NCBI GenBank assembly: GCA_016840085.1
Contig: JAEOTA010000014.1
Coordinates: 31,025 to 95,024 of the forward strand
Reading direction: 5' to 3'
Length of the DNA stretch: 64,000 nt
From: Promethearchaeota archaeon
GTDB lineage: Archaea; Asgardarchaeota; Lokiarchaeia; Sigyniarchaeales; SOKP01
The notes below the pieces were generated by a model that saw only the letters and a program-made list of their open reading frames with translations, was not told the DNA's origin and did no database searches. Position numbers and translations under genes: made by a program. Of this stretch, positions 54,665-64,000 are shown one piece after another. How positions within the stretch are numbered: the stretch's first letter is position 1; each line of letters begins with the position of its first letter.

Positions 54665-55807
54665 ATGACTAAAGGAATTATTCTATCTGGAGGCTGGGGA
54701 ACTCGATTACGCCCATTGACTTGCACTATACCTAAGACTTTAATTCCCATAGTGAATAAACCGGTTATTGAACGCCAAATTTTGTTATTAAAAGCTGCTG
54801 GTGTAAAAGATATCGTACTCGCTGTTAGTGTAATGGGCGATATATTACAGAATTATTTCAAAAATGGTGAAAAATTTGGTATTAATATTCAGTACACAGA
54901 AGAAAAAAGTCCCATGGGAACCGCTGGTGCTGTGAAATTAGCTGGAGATTTGTTACAAGAAGAGAATTTTTTCATGTTAAATGGAGATGTGATTTTAAAT
55001 TTTGATTTTACTCAAATGATTAAATTTCATGATCAATATAAAGGAATAGGATTAATTGCAAGTAAAATCGTTGAAGATCCTTCTAGATATGGGGTTTTAA
55101 TTACAGAGGAAAAGTCAAATAAGATCTTAAAATTCCTTGAAAAATCAGAATATACACCTCCAGAAGGGAAGGATGTTCCAATGCCTATTAATGCTGGAGT
55201 ATATCTTTTTGAACCTGAGGTTTTGTCATATGTAGAACCTATGAAAAAGGTTTCAATTGAAAGAGAGATTTTTCCTAAGCTTGCAAATGAAGGAAAACTT
55301 TACCACTATGCAATATCAGGAGTTTGGAAAGATGTAGGGAAGCCTGAAGAATTGTTAGAAGGAAATATTCTCTTATTAAATGACATTTTAAAAAATATTG
55401 ATAAAAAGAATTTAATTGATGACACTCTTGATATTGAAGGCAAGGCTTTAATTTATCCTCCGGTCGCTATAGGGGAGAATGTAGTAATTAGAAAGAATTG
55501 TAAAATTGGACCAAACGCTATTATTGGTAATAATGTGTATATTGATTCCAATACCGAAGTTAAAGACAGCCTAATTTATAATGAAGCATATATTAATAAA
55601 AATGTTAAAATAGAAAATGCTATCATATCTGATAATTGTGTAATTCATGATAGAGTAGAATTAAAAGGGAATGGGCAAAATCTAATTATCTTAGCCTCGT
55701 TCGTAGAAGTATTAGAAAATATCAAATTAGTTGCTCCACCTAATAATTCAATTACAGTGTGTCATCATGAAATTGTTAGAGAATGGAAGGAGTTAAACAA
55801 ATTATGA
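54665..55807 (+). CDS. Sugar-1-phosphate nucleotidyltransferase (mannose-1-P guanylyltransferase-like) with LbH tail
   Basis: GGWGTRLRPLT..PK, GTAGA, NGD, YGV, FLEK, WxDVG; hexapeptide repeats. Confidence 0.88.
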   Translation: MTKGIILSGGWGTRLRPLTCTIPKTLIPIVNKPVIERQILLLKAAGVKDIVLAVSVMGDILQNYFKNGEKFGINIQYTEEKSPMGTAGAVKLAGDLLQEENFFMLNGDVILNFDFTQMIKFHDQYKGIGLIASKIVEDPSRYGVLITEEKSNKILKFLEKSEYTPPEGKDVPMPINAGVYLFEPEVLSYVEPMKKVSIEREIFPKLANEGKLYHYAISGVWKDVGKPEELLEGNILLLNDILKNIDKKNLIDDTLDIEGKALIYPPVAIGENVVIRKNCKIGPNAIIGNNVYIDSNTEVKDSLIYNEAYINKNVKIENAIISDNCVIHDRVELKGNGQNLIILASFVEVLENIKLVAPPNNSITVCHHEIVREWKELNKL

Positions 55808-55837
55808 TACAATCATAATATAATGTGATTTTGAATT

Positions 55838-56116
55838 ATGGAAAATCTACAAGAAAAAGGTCTGAAAATATTTAAAGCTATTTTTGAAGGAAAAAAGACA
55901 GTAGAAATAGATGGCATCGAATATTCTATTAAAAAATTCTCAAGTGGGATAAAATATTTAGATTTGTTTGGGTATCGTTTTATTGAGCAAAACCGCCAGA
56001 AAAAATCTGAATGGGGTAAAAAAGCACGAGAAGGACATAAGATTATGTGGATCATTAAAGGAAGACGATATATGGTAAGAATAATGGATGAAGAATATAT
56101 AGATTTAAAAAAATAA
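55838..56116 (+). CDS. Small basic hypothetical protein
   Basis: 92-aa ORF; FIEQNxxKKSxWxKKARxG. Confidence 0.6.
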   Translation: MENLQEKGLKIFKAIFEGKKTVEIDGIEYSIKKFSSGIKYLDLFGYRFIEQNRQKKSEWGKKAREGHKIMWIIKGRRYMVRIMDEEYIDLKK

Positions 56117-56370
56117 TAAATGAAATCTCTGCATGAATGATACTACAAATATTTACCTATTGAGCTTAAGGAAGTAACCTTACACACAATAATCGGTAAC
56201 ATCTTTTTCTTCCTGTTAAGTCTTGTTATTGATTGGCATCTCAATAATCCTAAATTCAATTTTTAGAATATTACATATACAAGAATTGGACTCCAATTCA
56301 TATATATTCAATATTAATTCTTATTTCCTTAGTGATAAAAAGAAAAAAATAAATATAAAATAAAAAAAAG

Positions 56371-56559
56371 ATGGAAGCTAAAATTAAGATGGATATGAAT
56401 TATTATGAGTTTTTGAATGTACTTCAAGATGTATCAATCAATTCCAAAACTATTCAGAAAAATTGCATTAGATGTATTTATGAGAATTATGATATTTCTC
56501 AGGTTAAAAATAAGTTAAATAAGAAAATCGCAAAATTAGACAGATTATTAATAAAATAA
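56371..56559 (+). CDS. Small hypothetical protein
   Basis: 62-aa ATG ORF with CIRC. Confidence 0.4.
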   Translation: MEAKIKMDMNYYEFLNVLQDVSINSKTIQKNCIRCIYENYDISQVKNKLNKKIAKLDRLLIK

Positions 56560-56602
56560 TATTGTATCTTGTTTTTTTATGATTATCACTTTTCCATTTC
56601 CT

Positions 56603-56630
56603 AATTGAGTACTCATTTGAGTACTCAATT
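56603..56630. repeat. Perfect inverted repeat made of two TGAGTACTCA palindromes
   Basis: AATTGAGTACTCA-TT-TGAGTACTCAATT between convergent genes. Confidence 0.9.
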
Positions 56631-56670
56631 TTTACTTAAATTTGTCAAAATTATCATTTTGATTAGCGTA

Positions 56671-57108
56671 CTAAATCCTATCAAGAATGAACGATGGCAA
56701 TTTACCCTCTTTAATTAGAATTTTCACCAAATTAGGCATGCTATTCCATTGTTGAACACAGAAGTTAAATTCTTCTTCTGTGATATCTTTAAATTTTGGA
56801 GCTCTATAAGTTAACATTCCTATAGGCGTCGAGAAAAGATGCTTTACTTTATCACAAGGGAAGTCATCACATTGTGCACAACTATCTAACCCTTTATCTC
56901 GAGCACACGGACGAGCTTTGCATTGCTTATCCGCAATTTTATTTCCTTTACTCTTGCATCCTTCGCAAGCTACATTCTCAGCAGTGTAATTTTCATGCCC
57001 GAGATATTTTTTCCAAGCATCAACCATCTTCTGTCGAACACTTATATCATCTGAACGAGCAGCACATAAATGACAATTATAACCACAATAACCAATCATT
57101 TTTTCCAT
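56671..57108 (-). CDS. DUF3795 family Cys-rich protein
   Basis: GYCGYNCxxC, CxGC, CxxRxC, CxxCxxFPC. Confidence 0.8.
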   Translation of the reverse strand: MEKMIGYCGYNCHLCAARSDDISVRQKMVDAWKKYLGHENYTAENVACEGCKSKGNKIADKQCKARPCARDKGLDSCAQCDDFPCDKVKHLFSTPIGMLTYRAPKFKDITEEEFNFCVQQWNSMPNLVKILIKEGKLPSFILDRI

Positions 57109-57155
57109 GTAGAAATCACTAAATAATATATTTCTCTAAATACAACAAATTAAGA

Positions 57156-57755
57156 TTAACTTAAATTTAACTTTTTTGCGATCAATTCTAAATATGATTC
57201 TCTAATCGATTCTTGTTGCGATATTCCGAAATGTCCTAAAAATTCAAATAGTTTGTTTTTAGTAGACTCTAAATTATTTTGTGTTTCAGATAAAAACTCA
57301 ACCTCTATAAAATGTTGGTTCAGGATTGGTATATAATCAATTAAAGCATCAATATGAAAGTTGTTGAATATAAATTCATATAACTCACGGTCTTTTTTAA
57401 TGGTAAAAATTTCTTTAAATCCAAGGTTTTTTAATAGTTCTCTCATCTTGTCTAAATTTTCAATCTTAATCTCTAATTCTTCACGGGTCTTGGTTGTATC
57501 ATCAATTTTTTTCCCTTTATAGGTTAGGAAATAAGCGACTTTTTGATTCTTCTCTTTATTATTTTTATTAAATTCAATAGATTTTCTAAGTCTTAAAGCC
57601 TCATCTGTTTTTTTAAAATCCCTTAATCCTTTTGGCATGTTAAAATAAGTATCTTCATGAACTAATGACAATTTATATATTCCATTGTATTCTTTGAATT
57701 GTTTTCTCATTAATTCTGGATTTGAGATTTTAACTTTAATTTCTACTTCTATCAT
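57156..57755 (-). CDS. cyaB: CYTH-domain protein (class IV adenylate cyclase-like)
   Basis: EVEIK, DTYF, LRLR, LTYKG, REELE, KxR, FIEVE, SYLEL. Confidence 0.85.
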   Translation of the reverse strand: MIEVEIKVKISNPELMRKQFKEYNGIYKLSLVHEDTYFNMPKGLRDFKKTDEALRLRKSIEFNKNNKEKNQKVAYFLTYKGKKIDDTTKTREELEIKIENLDKMRELLKNLGFKEIFTIKKDRELYEFIFNNFHIDALIDYIPILNQHFIEVEFLSETQNNLESTKNKLFEFLGHFGISQQESIRESYLELIAKKLNLS

Positions 57756-57838
57756 ATTAATACCTTCTAATCTGATAACAATTATAATTTATTCTTTTTT
57801 ATATGTATTTAAAAGATTTTTATTGAGTTGACTTATCT

Positions 57839-58804
57839 ATTTCTCATTTTCAAGAAGCCACCCAAAAACTTGCTCAAGAATACGGATATCTTCCTTATAT
57901 GATTGAGAGATATATTAAATTTTTAGGAATTGATGACACTATAAAACTTTTAAAAGCAAATGAAAAACCTTTAAATCCATCTATACGTGTTAATACTCTC
58001 AAAATTAGTGGAGCTGAATTAAAAAAAAGATTGGAACAGAAGGGTTTTGAGTTAGAACCAATTGATTGGGTTCCTTACGCATTTAAAATAATTAAAGAAA
58101 CTTATAATTTAGGTTCAACTCATGAATTTCTTCAAGGTTATTATTATTTACAAAATATCGCATCAATGCTTCCTTCTATAATTCTTGATCCGAATCCCAA
58201 CGATATTGTTATCGATATGTGTGCAGCACCAGGCAGCAAGGCAACACATTTAGCTCAATTAATGAAAAATCAGGGAACACTAATTTTAATTGATAGAAAT
58301 AGAAATAGAATACCTGCTTTAGAAACTAATTTGCGCAGAATGGGAATCATTAACTCTATAGTTCTAAACATGGATGCTAAAGATATATCTAAATTAAATA
58401 TTAAAGCTGATAAAATTTTGTTAGATGCTCCATGCACAGGAGAAGGATTGATAAGGCAAGATCCAACCCGGAAAAGAAGTAAAAGGTTAAGAGATATCGA
58501 AAAGATGTCTAAAATTCAAAAATTATTACTGAGAGTTGGTTTGAAAGTTTTAAAACCTGGAGGAAAACTGCTATATAGCACGTGTTCAATCGCTCCCGAA
58601 GAAAATGAAATAGTACTAAATGATATCCTTCAAGATGAATCAGATTTCTCGATAATAAAAATTAATAATCAATATGGCATTAATGGACTTACCCGTTTTT
58701 TCGAAAATGCTCTATTGGAGGAAATAAAGTTATCGCAACGATTATATCCTCACCTACATGATACTATTGGTTTCTTCTTATGCCTTATTAAAAGAAAGAA
58801 TTAA
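57839..58804 (+). CDS. RsmB/NOP2-family RNA (cytosine-C5) methyltransferase (probable ATT start; first ATG at 57899)
   Basis: RVNTLK, DMCAAPGSK, DAPCTG, YSTCS, GFF; frame extends upstream through LAQEYGYLPYMIERY. Confidence 0.9.
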   Translation: MSHFQEATQKLAQEYGYLPYMIERYIKFLGIDDTIKLLKANEKPLNPSIRVNTLKISGAELKKRLEQKGFELEPIDWVPYAFKIIKETYNLGSTHEFLQGYYYLQNIASMLPSIILDPNPNDIVIDMCAAPGSKATHLAQLMKNQGTLILIDRNRNRIPALETNLRRMGIINSIVLNMDAKDISKLNIKADKILLDAPCTGEGLIRQDPTRKRSKRLRDIEKMSKIQKLLLRVGLKVLKPGGKLLYSTCSIAPEENEIVLNDILQDESDFSIIKINNQYGINGLTRFFENALLEEIKLSQRLYPHLHDTIGFFLCLIKRKN

Positions 58805-58864
58805 AATTCATCCTAATCTATTAGGGCCAATGAATAGGAAATGGTTTTTTTTTAAATTTATTTT

Positions 58865-58894
58865 TGTAGAAAATTGGTCCTTATACCTTTATAT
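58865..58894 (+). promoter_or_regulatory. Repeated motif copy 1 + TATA box
   Basis: TGTAGAAAATTGGTCCTTAT-acc-TTTATAT. Confidence 0.7.
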
Positions 58895-58969
58895 TTGTAA
58901 CTTGATTAATAATAATGTATTTAGATTTAATCCAAAATAATACTCTTTTGAGAAGAGACATCCAATATT

Positions 58970-59908
58970 TTGATTAATGACACTAAAATAAGTCATGAAA
59001 ATTACCCATTAATCTCTATTCTATATGATTTATTAACGAATGTTAGAATGCTACTTTTTCTAAGACTTTATATTAACAGCTCTCTTAATAAAATCTTAAC
59101 CAATATAGATTTAAGAAATAGGTTCAAATCTGAAATATTAAAAGCATCAATAGGAAATTTTATTAAATTTCTAAATATGAAAATTGAGATAATCAAACGT
59201 TCAATTGGATTACAACATCCTAGTGTTCAGAGAGTATTAGAAATAGCTCAGGAACTTTTGAATCAAAATAAAGTATTAAACATAGAAAACTTATACAATA
59301 TAGCTAAAAGACGCTTAAAATTACCTCGAAATGGACTTTTATATATTATTCAATTTTTAATTAATAAAAAAGTGTTAATTGAGGGTTCAAAGTTCTCAAA
59401 AGAAAGTGCACTCTCTAATCATTATAGAAAAAAAGTGTATAATTATATTAAAACTCATCCAGGAATTCACTTCTCGCACCTAAGAAAAAGAGCTCTTTCT
59501 GACGGTTTGGAAGAAACTGGAAGCTCTGGCCAATTAATTTGGCATTTAGAAATGTTACTTAGATTTAATTATATAAAGAAGATAAAAGTTGGACACTACA
59601 CAGTTTTCCTCCCTTTTGAAATGGTTGAGGATGAGGGAAAACTCTTTTTTCTATTAAGGGATAAAATTAGTAATAAAATCTTACACTTATTAGCGGAGCA
59701 AGACTTAACTATAAAATCGGAAATTTATAAAGCTATAAATGAAAAAAGAGAAGACGTTTATTATCGTATAAAAAATTTAATGGATTACCACATTATTTCT
59801 TTAATTGAAGAATCCGACAAAGAAATTTCTTTAAACCCAAATATAAAGGAAATTTTCCTTGAGATATTAAAAGAAAACAAAAATAAAAAATTAAAACTTG
59901 AATTTTAA
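58970..59908 (+). CDS. Multi winged-HTH transcriptional regulator (true start possibly ATG at 59177)
   Basis: RxxVYxYIxxHPGIHF..GQLxWHLxxL and second wHTH KILHLL..SEI..VYYRIKxL. Confidence 0.75.
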   Translation: MINDTKISHENYPLISILYDLLTNVRMLLFLRLYINSSLNKILTNIDLRNRFKSEILKASIGNFIKFLNMKIEIIKRSIGLQHPSVQRVLEIAQELLNQNKVLNIENLYNIAKRRLKLPRNGLLYIIQFLINKKVLIEGSKFSKESALSNHYRKKVYNYIKTHPGIHFSHLRKRALSDGLEETGSSGQLIWHLEMLLRFNYIKKIKVGHYTVFLPFEMVEDEGKLFFLLRDKISNKILHLLAEQDLTIKSEIYKAINEKREDVYYRIKNLMDYHIISLIEESDKEISLNPNIKEIFLEILKENKNKKLKLEF

Positions 59909-59935
59909 AATTATAAAAGAGGGAAAGGAGCAAAT

Positions 59936-61249
59936 ATGGCATTAAATTGGAATATCGAAGTGATTGTTGATTTTATTGTATCTCTTGTTATCTTAATTAA
60001 CATGATAGTGACATACTTTACGTCTAAATCTCAAAAAATTACTTCATTACTCTATATTAGATTGTCAATTTTTGGTATGTGTATTTTTATGGCCATGGAT
60101 GGCTTATCATTTCTTTTTGTTAGTGAAATGCTTGCTAGGATCACAGGTATCATCCTTTTCCCCACCACAATATTTTTGATAATAGGTATCAATTACACAA
60201 TCAGAGAAACATTTTATTCTAAAGGTCTTATTATGTGCTTCGGATTAGGAGCTTTATTTACTTACTTAACATTTCAACCTGGAGTCGCCAAACCCAGTTT
60301 AGAAACGGGATATCTTAGGATGAATTGGACTGGAGCGTTCAATATACTTGCAATTGTGTTTACTGCATTAATGGCACTTTATTTATTTTATTGGGGATTA
60401 AAAACTTGGGTAAATGCTCCAGTTTTGATAAAAAAAGAAGCATCTATTTTCTTTTTAGGCATTATAATAGCATCGCCAGTAGGAATGGTTTTTTATTTTC
60501 TCTATCTAATGGAACCAGTTTTTATTTTAGCTTCTGATTTTTCAATGATAATAGGCATTCTGATTTTTCTTATAGCTATACTACGTGAACCAAAACTCCT
60601 ATATATATTGCCTTTCACTGTTTATAGAATTAGTGTAAAAGATAGAGAGGGTTTTCCACTGTTCGATCATGATTGGTCTAAATCTAACATAAGTGATACA
60701 ATATTTACAGGATTTTTAAATGCTGTTCAGCTTATGAGCGAGGAAGTAATGAATATTGGGGGCTTATTAGATATAAATTTAGAGGAAGGGATTTTAATTT
60801 TAAGAGAATCCAAATTAATAACAGTAGGATTAGTTGCCTCTAAATCTTCTAAATTATTAAGTGAATCAGTAGTAAAATTTACAAATGATTTTGAGATAAA
60901 ATTTGAGAAAGAATTAAGAAAATCAGTTAAAAATATGTCTCAATATGAGGATGCGTTTGAACTTATAGAAAAATACTTCTCTAACTTTCCTTATAAGATA
61001 TTAAAGAGTAAAAAACAACCATTACTTTTAGCAGGTAAATATGCTAGGATTCCCTTAGAAATAGAAAATAAATTAAAAACTATTTTTACAGATGAAAAAG
61101 AATATGAGTTTATAAAGACCGAACTACAAAGATCTCCCTTTTATTTTACTAAGGGATTTTTATCCTTATATGACGAAGTGAAAAAAGAAGAACGAATCTC
61201 TGGAGAAGAACTTAAATATTTAGATACGGAAGTAAGTAATAATAAGTAA
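59936..61249 (+). CDS. 7-TM membrane protein fused to cytoplasmic longin-like domain
   Basis: Seven hydrophobic helices (aa ~8-216), then VYRISVKDREGFPLF..FTGFLNAVQLMSEEV..LVASK..FTNDFExxF. Confidence 0.7.
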   Translation: MALNWNIEVIVDFIVSLVILINMIVTYFTSKSQKITSLLYIRLSIFGMCIFMAMDGLSFLFVSEMLARITGIILFPTTIFLIIGINYTIRETFYSKGLIMCFGLGALFTYLTFQPGVAKPSLETGYLRMNWTGAFNILAIVFTALMALYLFYWGLKTWVNAPVLIKKEASIFFLGIIIASPVGMVFYFLYLMEPVFILASDFSMIIGILIFLIAILREPKLLYILPFTVYRISVKDREGFPLFDHDWSKSNISDTIFTGFLNAVQLMSEEVMNIGGLLDINLEEGILILRESKLITVGLVASKSSKLLSESVVKFTNDFEIKFEKELRKSVKNMSQYEDAFELIEKYFSNFPYKILKSKKQPLLLAGKYARIPLEIENKLKTIFTDEKEYEFIKTELQRSPFYFTKGFLSLYDEVKKEERISGEELKYLDTEVSNNK

Positions 61250-61328
61250 ATTTAATCAATATTAATCATTATCCTATTTTTTTTTATTAGTAAAGATTTT
61301 CATGTTAACTTTTTTGTAAAATCACTTT

Positions 61329-61359
61329 TGTAGAAAATTGGTCCTTATGGTTTTATATA
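61329..61359 (+). promoter_or_regulatory. Repeated motif copy 2 + TATA box
   Basis: TGTAGAAAATTGGTCCTTAT-ggt-TTTATATA; 23-bp identity with copy 1. Confidence 0.7.
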
Positions 61360-61600
61360 TTCAAGTGATGTAATTGATCATGGTTTCGCTTCTAGAAGAA
61401 TATAAGGGAGAATAGAGTGGAATCTAATGTTTATAAAATTAGGAGGAAATAAAACTATATTGGTGCTTTTAATATCATAACCTTTTCCTCTTAATGTAAA
61501 ATATTCTCTACTTATATTATTTTATTGGGATTTAATATTTTAAATACTTTCAATATCTAAAAATAACCAACCTAAAGCTACATTTTCACCTCATATTTCA

Positions 61601-61631
61601 TGCAGAAATTTGGTCCTAATAACTTTAAATA
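61601..61631 (+). promoter_or_regulatory. Repeated motif copy 3 + TATA box
   Basis: TGCAGAAATTTGGTCCTAAT-aac-TTTAAATA; 17/20 match. Confidence 0.65.
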
Positions 61632-61714
61632 TATAGCATTCATAAACATATATTAACCATTTTTATTTAAACTTCAAAAATATATTAATAATCTATATAA
61701 ATGGGTGAAAAAAT

Positions 61715-63870
61715 ACGAAAAATTTAAGAAAAATAGAGTATGTTATATTAGCGACGATCCTTTTGCTTTTTTCTAGTGCCTTTATACCTACTAATCTTGT
61801 CAAAACTAAGGCAGTTGAAACAACAATTCAAGATAATAAATTAAAAAACAGTGCGGTTTCCGCTATATTTGACGGTTTATATTTGGCACATACTTTTAAT
61901 ATTTCGGGTTTTGTTATGCCCTCAGTGTTTAGATATTCTTACGTCTCAGGAGATATGTTTCATGTTGAATGGGATTTGAATTATACGATGTTTTATTCAT
62001 ATGGGATGTCAACGTCACAACCAGGATCATGGAGAATTCTGGTGGTACTGGATTTATTTTTGGAGATGGATATCATGATCCTACATGGATTTTTACTGAT
62101 GTTTCCCTTACTGATACTTTATCAATAGCTATTGATGGTATTGGGGATCATACCTTTCAAATAACGGGTGAAACTACTTATGATCTCCCTGGTGTTGGAC
62201 TTGTTGATGTTTGGATACTAGAAGACTTAACATATCCTGGTGAAATTGTCTGGTATGAAAAGAGCACTGGAATTCTTTTAAATGGAACATTTAGGTGGAG
62301 TTCAACAGATTATTATATTTATGATTTTGTATTTACTAATGCTTTTGGTGTTGCTCATGATTTAGATGTCTCATTAGAAGTCCCAGATACTCCGAAAATA
62401 TTTGAGACTTTTACCATAAGTGCCACGGCTACTAATACAGGTGAAAATGCTGAAACTGGTGTAGACTTGTATCTCTATCTTGATAATGTTATTGTTGATT
62501 CAATCACTGATTATAGTCTTTCTATTGGTGAAAATGCAACAATTAATTATGAATGGACTCCAACTGAAATGAAGCTATACAATTTTACAGCATACGCTCC
62601 ACCTGTGTCTGGTGAGTCATATTTTGATAATAATTACGCTACTGAGATAATAAATTCCTATATAAATTACACTATGTTTCCAGGACATCCTTATAGTTGG
62701 ATAAGTGCTTCTGGTGGTACAGAGTTATTTTTAGGGGATGATGATTATACTGATATCCTTTTACCTTTTAACTTTACTTTTTATGATCAAACATTTTCTA
62801 CTATTTATTTGAGCTCTAATGGATATCTTAGTTTCACAGATACATCACCTACAGATTTCTCTAACGATGATATTCCTTCAGATGATACAGATCATTATTA
62901 CCTAATTGCACCATTTTGGGATGATATTTATCCACCAGATGGAGGCCATATCTATAATCAATCATTTGGGACTTATTGGGTGGCAGCATGGGTGGACATA
63001 TATCATATAGGCGGTGATATTATAGGATCGTTTGAAGTAGTTTTATATGATTCAGGTGAAATCGTGTTTAATTATGATTATCTCAATTATACTGATGGTG
63101 AGTATACATGTGGGTTAAACTTAGGTGTGGATACACATTATTATAATTCATATCAAGGTTTGGATAATTTAACAGACGATTTTGCAATACGTTTCTCTCC
63201 GGATGCTCTCCATATTACTAATCCTGATAGTTCCAGTCTTTGGATAACAGGCACTTCAGAAGATATTAATTGGGCTTCAACAGGCACTATTTCAAATGTA
63301 AAAATTGAACTCTTTAAAGCTGATATATTTGAAATGGAAATTATTGCAAGCACAGCCAACGATGGCGAATATACTTGGACAATACCATCAGGACTCAATG
63401 ATTCTACGCAATATCAAATAAAAATCTCTGACGCTTCTGATCCGTTAACATATGATTATTCACCAAATTTTGAAATATTCACTCCTACTATCACTATTCT
63501 TACTCCTGATAGTTCCAGTGTTTGGAAAACCGGTACTTCTCAAAACATTAATTGGACTTCAACAGGTAATATTTCAAATGTAAAAATTGAACTCTATAAA
63601 GAGGGTGTATTAGAACTGGAAATTGTCGCTAGCACAGACAACGACGGCAATTTTATCTGGGCAGTGCCTAAAGAGCTTAAAACATCTGACCAATATCAAA
63701 TAAAAATCATAGATGCGTCCAATCCTTCCATATTCGCTCTTAGTGATTATTTCAAGATAAAGAAACCTAAAGATGTAATTCCAGGTTACAATATTTATAT
63801 TTTAGTAGGCTTACTAAGTATTGTATGTATTATTCTCATTAAAAGGCGACACAAAATAACAAATAAATAA
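61715..63870 (+). pseudogene. Secreted cell-surface protein (CARDB-like, nidogen/NIDO-like, two Ig-like repeats, C-terminal IPGY-TM anchor); ACG start and frameshift near 62000
   Basis: Signal peptide KNLRKIEYVILATILLLFSSA in the frame of 61763-62128; switches to the frame of 61969-63870 at WDVNVTTR; LPFNFTFY..SSNGYLSF..IAPFWDD. Confidence 0.72.
63214..63760 (+). repeat. Two tandem ~94-aa Ig-like repeats (period 282 nt)
   Basis: CCTGATAGTTCCAGT at 63223 and 63505; both encode I.WxSTGxISNVKIEL..NDG...W..P..YQIKI.DAS.P. Confidence 0.85.
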
Positions 63871-64000
63871 AAAATTAATTGAGTAAATTTTAACTTTTAA
63901 TTTTTTTATTTTTTTTACTTATTCTTGTATTAATTACTTCCTTTATAATAGTTCCATACCTATTAGATTTATGTCGTGCGATTTGAGCCCTCCATTACAA

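Follow-up and report, generated by a model that had tools for sequence, protein, structure and literature searches.

A DNA-binding protein can be controlled or tethered by a membrane sensor without phosphorylation: Mlc is held by PtsG, and ToxR and CadC are membrane-bound one-component regulators. For Asgard archaea, Liu et al. (bioRxiv 10.1101/2020.10.19.343400) remark on NPRL2-like longin domains fused to two-component domains, and a 2026 preprint refers, giving no detail, to '7TM proteins' and to a structural cluster of 'class C GPCR' type. Here we analyze three genes, all on the + strand, that fill positions 58970-63870 of a stretch of Promethearchaeota archaeon DNA (the window), which is the final 64 kb of contig C88 (window position 64000 is the contig end) in an assembly of 4.68 Mb and 89 contigs, and whose homologues carry the names Promethearchaeota or Lokiarchaeota. 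Gene 1 (58970-59908) encodes a winged-helix protein of 312 amino acids, recognized by its Pfam helix-turn-helix (HTH) match. Gene 2 (59936-61249) encodes a protein of 437 amino acids in which AlphaFold and structure searches reveal seven transmembrane (7TM) helices, a longin-fold domain and a helical tail. Gene 3 encodes a surface protein whose true span, from its domain matches and an analysis of its frame breaks, is about 61702-63870. We consider it moderately probable (roughly 0.6) that genes 1 and 2 form a kinase-free receptor-regulator pair steering a small and variable group of nearby promoters of envelope-protein genes. The pair looks like an undescribed kinase-free route from the membrane to gene control, and a literature search for Asgard proteins that combine 7TM and longin yielded no description of the pair, of its tail module or of its promoter box.

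That the two proteins act jointly is best supported by the receptor tail and the winged-helix partner, which occur together, share a module and can be fused. An exhaustive search returned 589 cluster representatives of the 7TM-longin family; of the 201 genomes sampled from the phylum, 108 have matches, with up to eight or more copies per genome. Most members stop behind the longin domain, at about 357 amino acids; those of one subfamily reach about 435 amino acids and carry an extra tail, which in gene 2 comprises residues 353-437 (85 residues, 60992-61249, delimited by AlphaFold and by its distribution in the subfamily). This tail occurs only in the subfamily with a winged-helix partner. Of 15 tail-bearing receptor loci with a usable upstream flank, 14 have the winged-helix gene directly upstream of the receptor gene, as do all six loci in three additional genomes that belong to two other genera, whereas none of 12 short, tail-less 7TM-longin loci has such a partner. 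In genome G019 a single open reading frame (ORF) of 676 amino acids joins the 7TM-longin-tail part (residues 7-429) to the winged-helix core (residues 451-670), and the same protein is present in the protein library. At locus L126 (G019:C223, 143-7701) a gene for a 509-residue Arf-like GTPase protein precedes the fused gene, and one for a protein of 969 amino acids without a Pfam match follows it.

In the window the gene 1 stop codon and the gene 2 ATG are 27 nt apart, with a ribosome-binding site (GAGGG..GGAG) inside the gap; an oligo-T run lies 3' of gene 2, and gene 3 starts about 450 nt further downstream. A previous interpretation made from the letters alone (the sequence-only reading) had proposed a winged-helix gene 27 bp before a seven-helix gene, which the coordinates and the Pfam match of gene 1 bear out, and a signalling module in which the third gene was an integral part. 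Only the pair recurs. Gene 3 is absent from the syntenic locus in the related genomes examined, and the triad therefore does not hold as a unit, whereas the idea of a kinase-free module from membrane to DNA gains support from the conserved pair, from the fused ORF and from the use of the 7TM-longin part as a sensor in kinases. Paralogous pairs exist elsewhere in the genome, and paralogous pairs adjoin surface-protein genes of the beta-helix/NosD, beta-propeller and CARDB types.

The kinase fusions are found among relatives of the short type. Some of these, with 625-640 amino acids (P0176, P0207, L127), continue into HisKA and HATPase_c domains after the longin, so that the 7TM-longin part, serving as the N-terminal part of classical histidine kinases, behaves as a sensor module with swappable outputs. 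A search for fused 7TM-longin forms longer than 766 amino acids gave none, which is weak evidence. At locus L128 (G177:C64, 1438-5478) the gene for a 7TM-longin-histidine kinase is flanked by a receiver gene directly downstream and, directly upstream on the same strand, by a gene for a RagA/Gtr1-like GTPase of 512 amino acids. Elsewhere in the genome under study (G000:C78:254947-260547; L052, 4948-10548) we found a giant protein of 1866 amino acids, without a Pfam match, in which a longin-like segment at about residues 1467-1576 is followed by a tail-like segment at residues 1809-1861, so that the longin-plus-tail unit exists outside 7TM proteins as well; a Pfam search of giant proteins with a longin-like segment gave nothing useful.

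Our whole-protein AlphaFold model of gene 2, built on an alignment with 24 close homologues (closest relative P0002, 84% identity), places the membrane domain at residues 1-217 (59936-60586), with helices at residues 7-29, 36-61, 64-90, 96-112, 133-160, 163-190 and 196-217 and an external beta-hairpin at residues 118-131. The predicted local distance difference test (pLDDT) score over residues 7-217 is 72-94 per 10-residue block and mainly above 85. Lys and Arg cluster in loop 30-35, and the predicted outward loops have none except for the long hairpin, a distribution that fits an N-terminus outside and a C-terminus inside. Gene 2 has no Pfam or NCBIfam family match, and Pfam finds in it neither HisKA nor HATPase_c; there is no kinase or cyclase, and the earlier description of seven transmembrane helices lacking both thus stands. 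The further claim that the protein is functionally like a G-protein-coupled receptor (GPCR) survives only as topology. Whole-protein Foldseek gave E values no better than 3e-3, and isolated-domain folding was needed. The membrane bundle matched the enzyme ACER3 (Z 13.0), Ste2 (Z 11.7) and class C and adhesion GPCRs (Z about 11), all within the range (Z 11-13, below about 13) that helical bundles attain without kinship, and no Pfam 7tm family matches gene 2. The membrane part has no conserved His/Asp metal site, which argues against a CREST-type enzyme. A language-model lead (0.88) points to a receptor of the 7TMR-DISM/HisKA_7TM type; the two Pfam families match one of 123 relatives each (4.9e-4 and 2.6e-3), with gene 2 itself below threshold.

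The cytoplasmic part of gene 2 was modelled alone from 123 diverse relatives (mean pLDDT 82.6). AlphaFold, Foldseek and structural Z scores delimit a longin-fold domain at residues 228-352 (60617-60991), with the element order beta-beta-alpha-beta-beta-beta-alpha, then helices, by DSSP in both models. The top Foldseek ranks are longins, namely zeta-COP (E 2.7e-5), then sigma-adaptins, VAMP7, Ykt6 and Sec22b, and the best scores in a structure search independent of Foldseek are those of the VAMP7 longin (4afi_B, Z 13.2, 3.7 A over 122 residues) and Sec22 (3egd_C, Z 13.2), followed by SRX (Z 11.4) and a solved Lokiarchaeial longin domain (8yqg_B, Z 10.9). The best Roadblock match reaches Z 9.7 over 99 residues. 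Longin differs from Roadblock in having its helix on the C-terminal rather than the N-terminal side, and the higher scores together with the beta/alpha order confirm on the models that the C-terminal domain is a longin at the level of the fold, as the sequence-only reading had predicted. Pfam longin families do not match gene 2; Fuz_longin_1 appears in 2 of 123 relatives (9.6e-4), and a paralogue in the same genome matches Sybindin at 0.003. Mean column identity is highest in the longin (0.84), followed by the tail (0.74) and the membrane part (0.61). The tail is predicted to form three helices; in blocks of 10 residues, pLDDT is 73-94 for the first two helices and for the greater part of the third.

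A longin fold could also mean that gene 2 is a membrane platform of the eukaryotic type, a guanine nucleotide exchange factor, a GTPase-activating protein or a docking site for an Asgard small GTPase encoded elsewhere, with the winged-helix protein downstream or accessory. The fold does match the longins of GTPase platforms (SRX-SRbeta, TRAPP, Mon1-Ccz1, CPLANE, FLCN), the genome holds 83 GTPase-like ORFs in total, and in two related loci an Arf-like (L126) or a RagA-like (L128, before the kinase-fused form) GTPase gene lies directly upstream. However, a hidden Markov model search found 4 small GTPase genes in the 206 kb around the pairs against about 3.7 expected from the genome background, which is no enrichment, and none in the conserved syntenic locus of the pair, leaving the link between the longin and small GTPases that had been drawn earlier unsupported here. 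A GTPase platform would, in addition, leave the strict co-occurrence of tail and winged-helix partner and the fused form unexplained, and we regard it as unlikely.

The winged-helix core of gene 1 comprises 243 amino acids from Met70 (59177-59908), as judged from PF24266, HTH_20 and conservation, which begins at this invariant methionine. Gene 1 matches the Pfam family HTH_HVO_0163_N (PF24266) with an E value of 3.3e-7. All 14 homologues match PF24266, 7 of them HTH_20 and others HTH_24 or HTH_5, with HTH_20 and HTH_5 being ArsR-type; the last segment has a weak Lrp/AsnC-type HTH match in the PDB (2ia0, E 0.07). By eye, the sequence may be read as three winged helices, the first of which was assigned in this way only. 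The start codon is a TTG backed by aligned orthologue starts, and the N-terminal extension that it opens (residues 1-69, 58970-59176) appears from hhalign and the orthologue starts to be a degenerate copy of the receptor tail module. In some genomes these residues occur as a separate ORF of about 130 amino acids, and extensions and stand-alone upstream ORFs together align with the receptor tails at 94.2% hhalign probability (E 1.1e-7, 49 columns). A second close gene 1 paralogue (E 2e-76) lies at G000:C3:40116-43047, 500 nt from a contig end and beside a divergent ORF of 637 amino acids; a receptor partner, if it has one, is missing from the assembled sequence.

The genomic neighbourhood of the pair raises a different question. 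At 8 loci in 7 genomes of two genera the pair sits between an RsmB/NOP2-like gene and a block of NIP7-like, Vps22/36 (EAP30), Vps25, Vps4 and Snf7 genes, the Vps and Snf7 genes belonging to the endosomal sorting complex required for transport (ESCRT). In the genome under study the ESCRT block, from the NIP7-like and Vps22/36-like genes onwards, stands at the end of contig C2 (G000:C2:96865-98410). The ends of C88 and C2 probably adjoin, which would make gene 3 an insertion between the receptor and the ESCRT genes. One might therefore take the pair for an ESCRT accessory, with the 7TM-longin protein as receptor or cargo adaptor, gene 1 as an ESCRT-II-like adaptor and the promoter motif described below bound by another factor. 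This conserved neighbourhood speaks for such a role, as does the fact that ESCRT-II is made of winged helices, and Asgard ESCRT-linked proteins with longin and HTH/PCI domains have been described (PMC11188069). Against it, gene 1 as an ESCRT-II paralogue had to be rejected, as hhalign gives a probability of only 0.4% with the Vps22/36-like neighbour and of 3.3% with the Vps25-like one; none of the 14 gene 1 homologues has an EAP30 or ESCRT-II Pfam match, their matches being to DNA-binding HTH families; paralogous pairs exist away from this locus; and the motif tracks the pair, not the ESCRT genes. An ESCRT accessory thus seems to us quite improbable.

The evidence for target promoters comes from a box of approximately TGTAGAAAWTTGGTCC that abuts the B recognition element (BRE) and the TATA box. 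Its 18-mer motif occurs in the window at 58866, 61330 and 61602, where chance alone would give 0.18 occurrences, and searches with a 14-mer core and with three relaxed motif-plus-TATA patterns returned the same three sites alone in the 4.68 Mb assembly. All three have a TATA box starting 3 nt after the motif. Copy 1 (58862-58897) forms the promoter of the gene 1-gene 2 operon, copy 2 (61326-61361) follows the oligo-T run of gene 2, and copy 3 (61598-61633), with three mismatches and a TATA-like box, is the promoter of gene 3. The same motif with the same TATA spacing lies upstream of the orthologous genes in 10 related loci, while the flanks diverge. Among 46 family genomes the motif-plus-TATA pattern has 26 matches against 4 for a reversed control; 16 of these 26 sites are no more than about 10 kb away from a pair. 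In G215 (L064/L074/L080, G215:C337:6387-9155) three identical copies on one strand, 1.3-1.4 kb apart and beside a divergent pair, each precede a different gene, one for a zinc-ribbon membrane protein, one for a secreted protein and one for an LVIVD-repeat protein; in G220 a pair and a divergent solute-binding protein gene have a copy between them; and sites remote from pairs front LVIVD, FG-GAP and zinc-ribbon membrane proteins. Extracytoplasmic proteins thus recur as a target class, whereas the individual target gene does not. At least four other genomes (L042, L046, L047, L068) have an equivalent of copy 2 immediately behind the receptor gene, where it runs antisense into the NIP7-like gene and points towards Vps22/36; no conserved ORF goes with it. 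Copy 2 may drive a small RNA or an antisense transcript, or it may be a relic. That the motif repeats are a by-product of local promoter duplication, and the gene order an inherited synteny with no functional link, is the least probable explanation we weighed: copy 2 does look like a duplicated 5' region, as its promoter and ribosome-binding site come with a short ORF similar to the beginning of gene 1, and gene 3 is an insertion, but the motif core and the TATA spacing are kept across genera while the flanks diverge, the motif fronts unrelated genes beside pairs in other genera, and the fused ORF and the co-occurrence of tail and partner argue for function.

The domains of gene 3 comprise a CARDB domain (8e-9), two Kre9/KNH Ig-like domains (1.5e-22) and a repeated N-terminal module that recurs as a repeat in many proteins of 600-2500 amino acids in the same archaeal family, and a Loki-CTERM anchor closes the protein (residues 604-629, 63778-63855; NCBIfam NF033507, 29.3 bits against a cut-off of 19.9). 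The signal peptide is out of frame with the ORF of 633 amino acids, and two single-base breaks lie within 300 nt while the neighbouring genes are intact: relative to the L045 homologue, one base has apparently been lost in the A-run after the ATG at 61702 (at about 61710), and likewise one T at 62002. Together these observations indicate that the gene really spans about 61702-63870. An ATA start was considered and rejected, a missing A after the ATG at 61702 being the better explanation of the signal-peptide frame. The breaks may reflect recent decay into a pseudogene or an assembly error. The closest relatives (50-59% identity) do not adjoin the orthologous pair, and gene 3 is a lineage-specific recent insertion that is probably inactive. 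Of the secreted NIDO/CARDB/Ig protein that had been proposed, the CARDB and Ig-like parts hold and the anchor is added; the NIDO-like region comes from a language-model lead (0.91) alone, with no Pfam or PDB sequence match. The promoter motif, which had been claimed for all three genes, is likewise shared by the operon and gene 3 and, apart from copy 2, which fronts no conserved gene, occurs nowhere else in the assembly; and control of cell-surface proteins gains support in that the motif accompanies the pair from genus to genus and precedes genes whose products are extracytoplasmic, though gene 3 is not itself a conserved target.

Under the receptor-regulator reading, gene 2 would be a membrane receptor with its N-terminus outside, whose longin and helical tail relay a signal to gene 1, and gene 1 a multi-winged-helix DNA-binding protein that recognizes the locus-specific box; the boxes at its own operon and at neighbouring genes for secreted or membrane-anchored proteins would be its target sites. 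The receptor may dock or hold the regulator through the surface of its tail or longin. The tail-like N-terminus of the regulator could pair with the receptor tail or compete for the longin, much as the SNARE helix folds back on the longin in VAMP7 and Sec22, and a ligand at the membrane might then alter the docking of the two proteins. Activation by gene 1 is slightly more likely than repression, because the box is fixed just upstream of the BRE/TATA.

Several observations weigh against this reading. The association of gene 1 with the motif is indirect, its links to the motif and to gene 2 are ones that we infer, and the PF24266 score of gene 1 (30.7 bits) is just under the curated cut-off of 31. 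Profile self-comparison with hhalign detects no internal repeats in gene 1, leaving the three-repeat reading unsupported. The window's own gene 1 extension is degenerate and scores weakly (E 0.013 in a 5-sequence search), and the shared tail module could have been left behind by a tandem duplication. There are ten motif sites remote from pairs, with about four chance matches expected, and some paralogous pairs have no recognizable copy of the window motif. Behind copy 2 (61326-61460) come no more than a ribosome-binding site and an ORF of 17 codons, and no conserved gene. Finally, with gene 3 frame-broken, this genome may have no working output.

The upstream genes (54665-58804) look ordinary, comprising a sugar nucleotidyltransferase-like gene (assigned by eye), an ORF of 92 amino acids kept in synteny, DUF3795, CYTH and the RsmB/NOP2-like methyltransferase. 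An Rfam search of 58700-62100 returned nothing at E values up to 1, and a bacterial promoter and terminator scan was uninformative, the host being an archaeon.

Asgard longins are usually read as signs of proto-trafficking or GTPase control, and almost none has an assigned partner. One longin family now has a defined context, consisting of a receptor, a DNA-binding partner, a candidate operator, candidate targets and natural fusions that show which parts belong together. The design does without a kinase, cyclase or protease, and it offers a small system, testable in E. coli, in vitro or in cultured Lokiarchaeia, for the role of a longin in an archaeon. The analysis also draws attention to a gene pair conserved next to the ESCRT genes, which ESCRT surveys have left undiscussed. 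A broader and more tentative idea, which we hold possible but rather doubtful, is that the Asgard longin is a general signal transmitter under a seven-helix receptor with interchangeable outputs (a histidine kinase or a tail-docked winged-helix regulator), and that the ESCRT-side pair, with its orphan promoter towards Vps22/36, could tie surface sensing to envelope and membrane-remodelling genes. If true, longin-based signalling would be older than, and independent of, small-GTPase regulation.

Compared with eukaryotic GPCRs (class C, adhesion and Ste2), gene 2 has seven helices, an N-out/C-in topology and Z scores of 11-12 over about 200 residues; unlike them it lacks a G protein, a GPCR sequence signature and any Pfam match, and ACER3 scores as high (13.0). 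With the longin SNAREs VAMP7, Sec22b and Ykt6, which are the best structural matches of residues 228-352, the likeness reaches further, as full-length alignments to closed VAMP7 (4b93) and Sec22 (3egd) extend into the tail, to residue 401. However, gene 2 has neither a SNARE motif nor a single C-terminal anchor, its longin comes after seven helices and not before one, and identity is 7-9%. The bacterial 7TMR-DISM and HisKA_7TM receptors (PF07695, PF16927) share the plan of a seven-helix N-terminal sensor with an exchangeable intracellular module; gene 2 falls below threshold for both families, and its output is a longin, which to our knowledge is not among the described outputs of these receptors. 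Like Mlc/PtsG and ToxR/CadC, gene 1 would be under membrane control, and the fused form of 676 amino acids would be a membrane-bound regulator, although the folds are unrelated, the promoter is an archaeal BRE/TATA promoter and the interaction between genes 1 and 2 is a proposed one. The proteins on which Liu et al. remark (10.1101/2020.10.19.343400) are also close: both cases have a longin inside prokaryote-type Asgard signalling proteins, and the relatives of gene 2 that carry HisKA and HATPase_c after the longin fit their remark, while the tail subfamily differs in having no kinase and in having instead a helical tail, a winged-helix partner, a shared tail module and a candidate promoter box.

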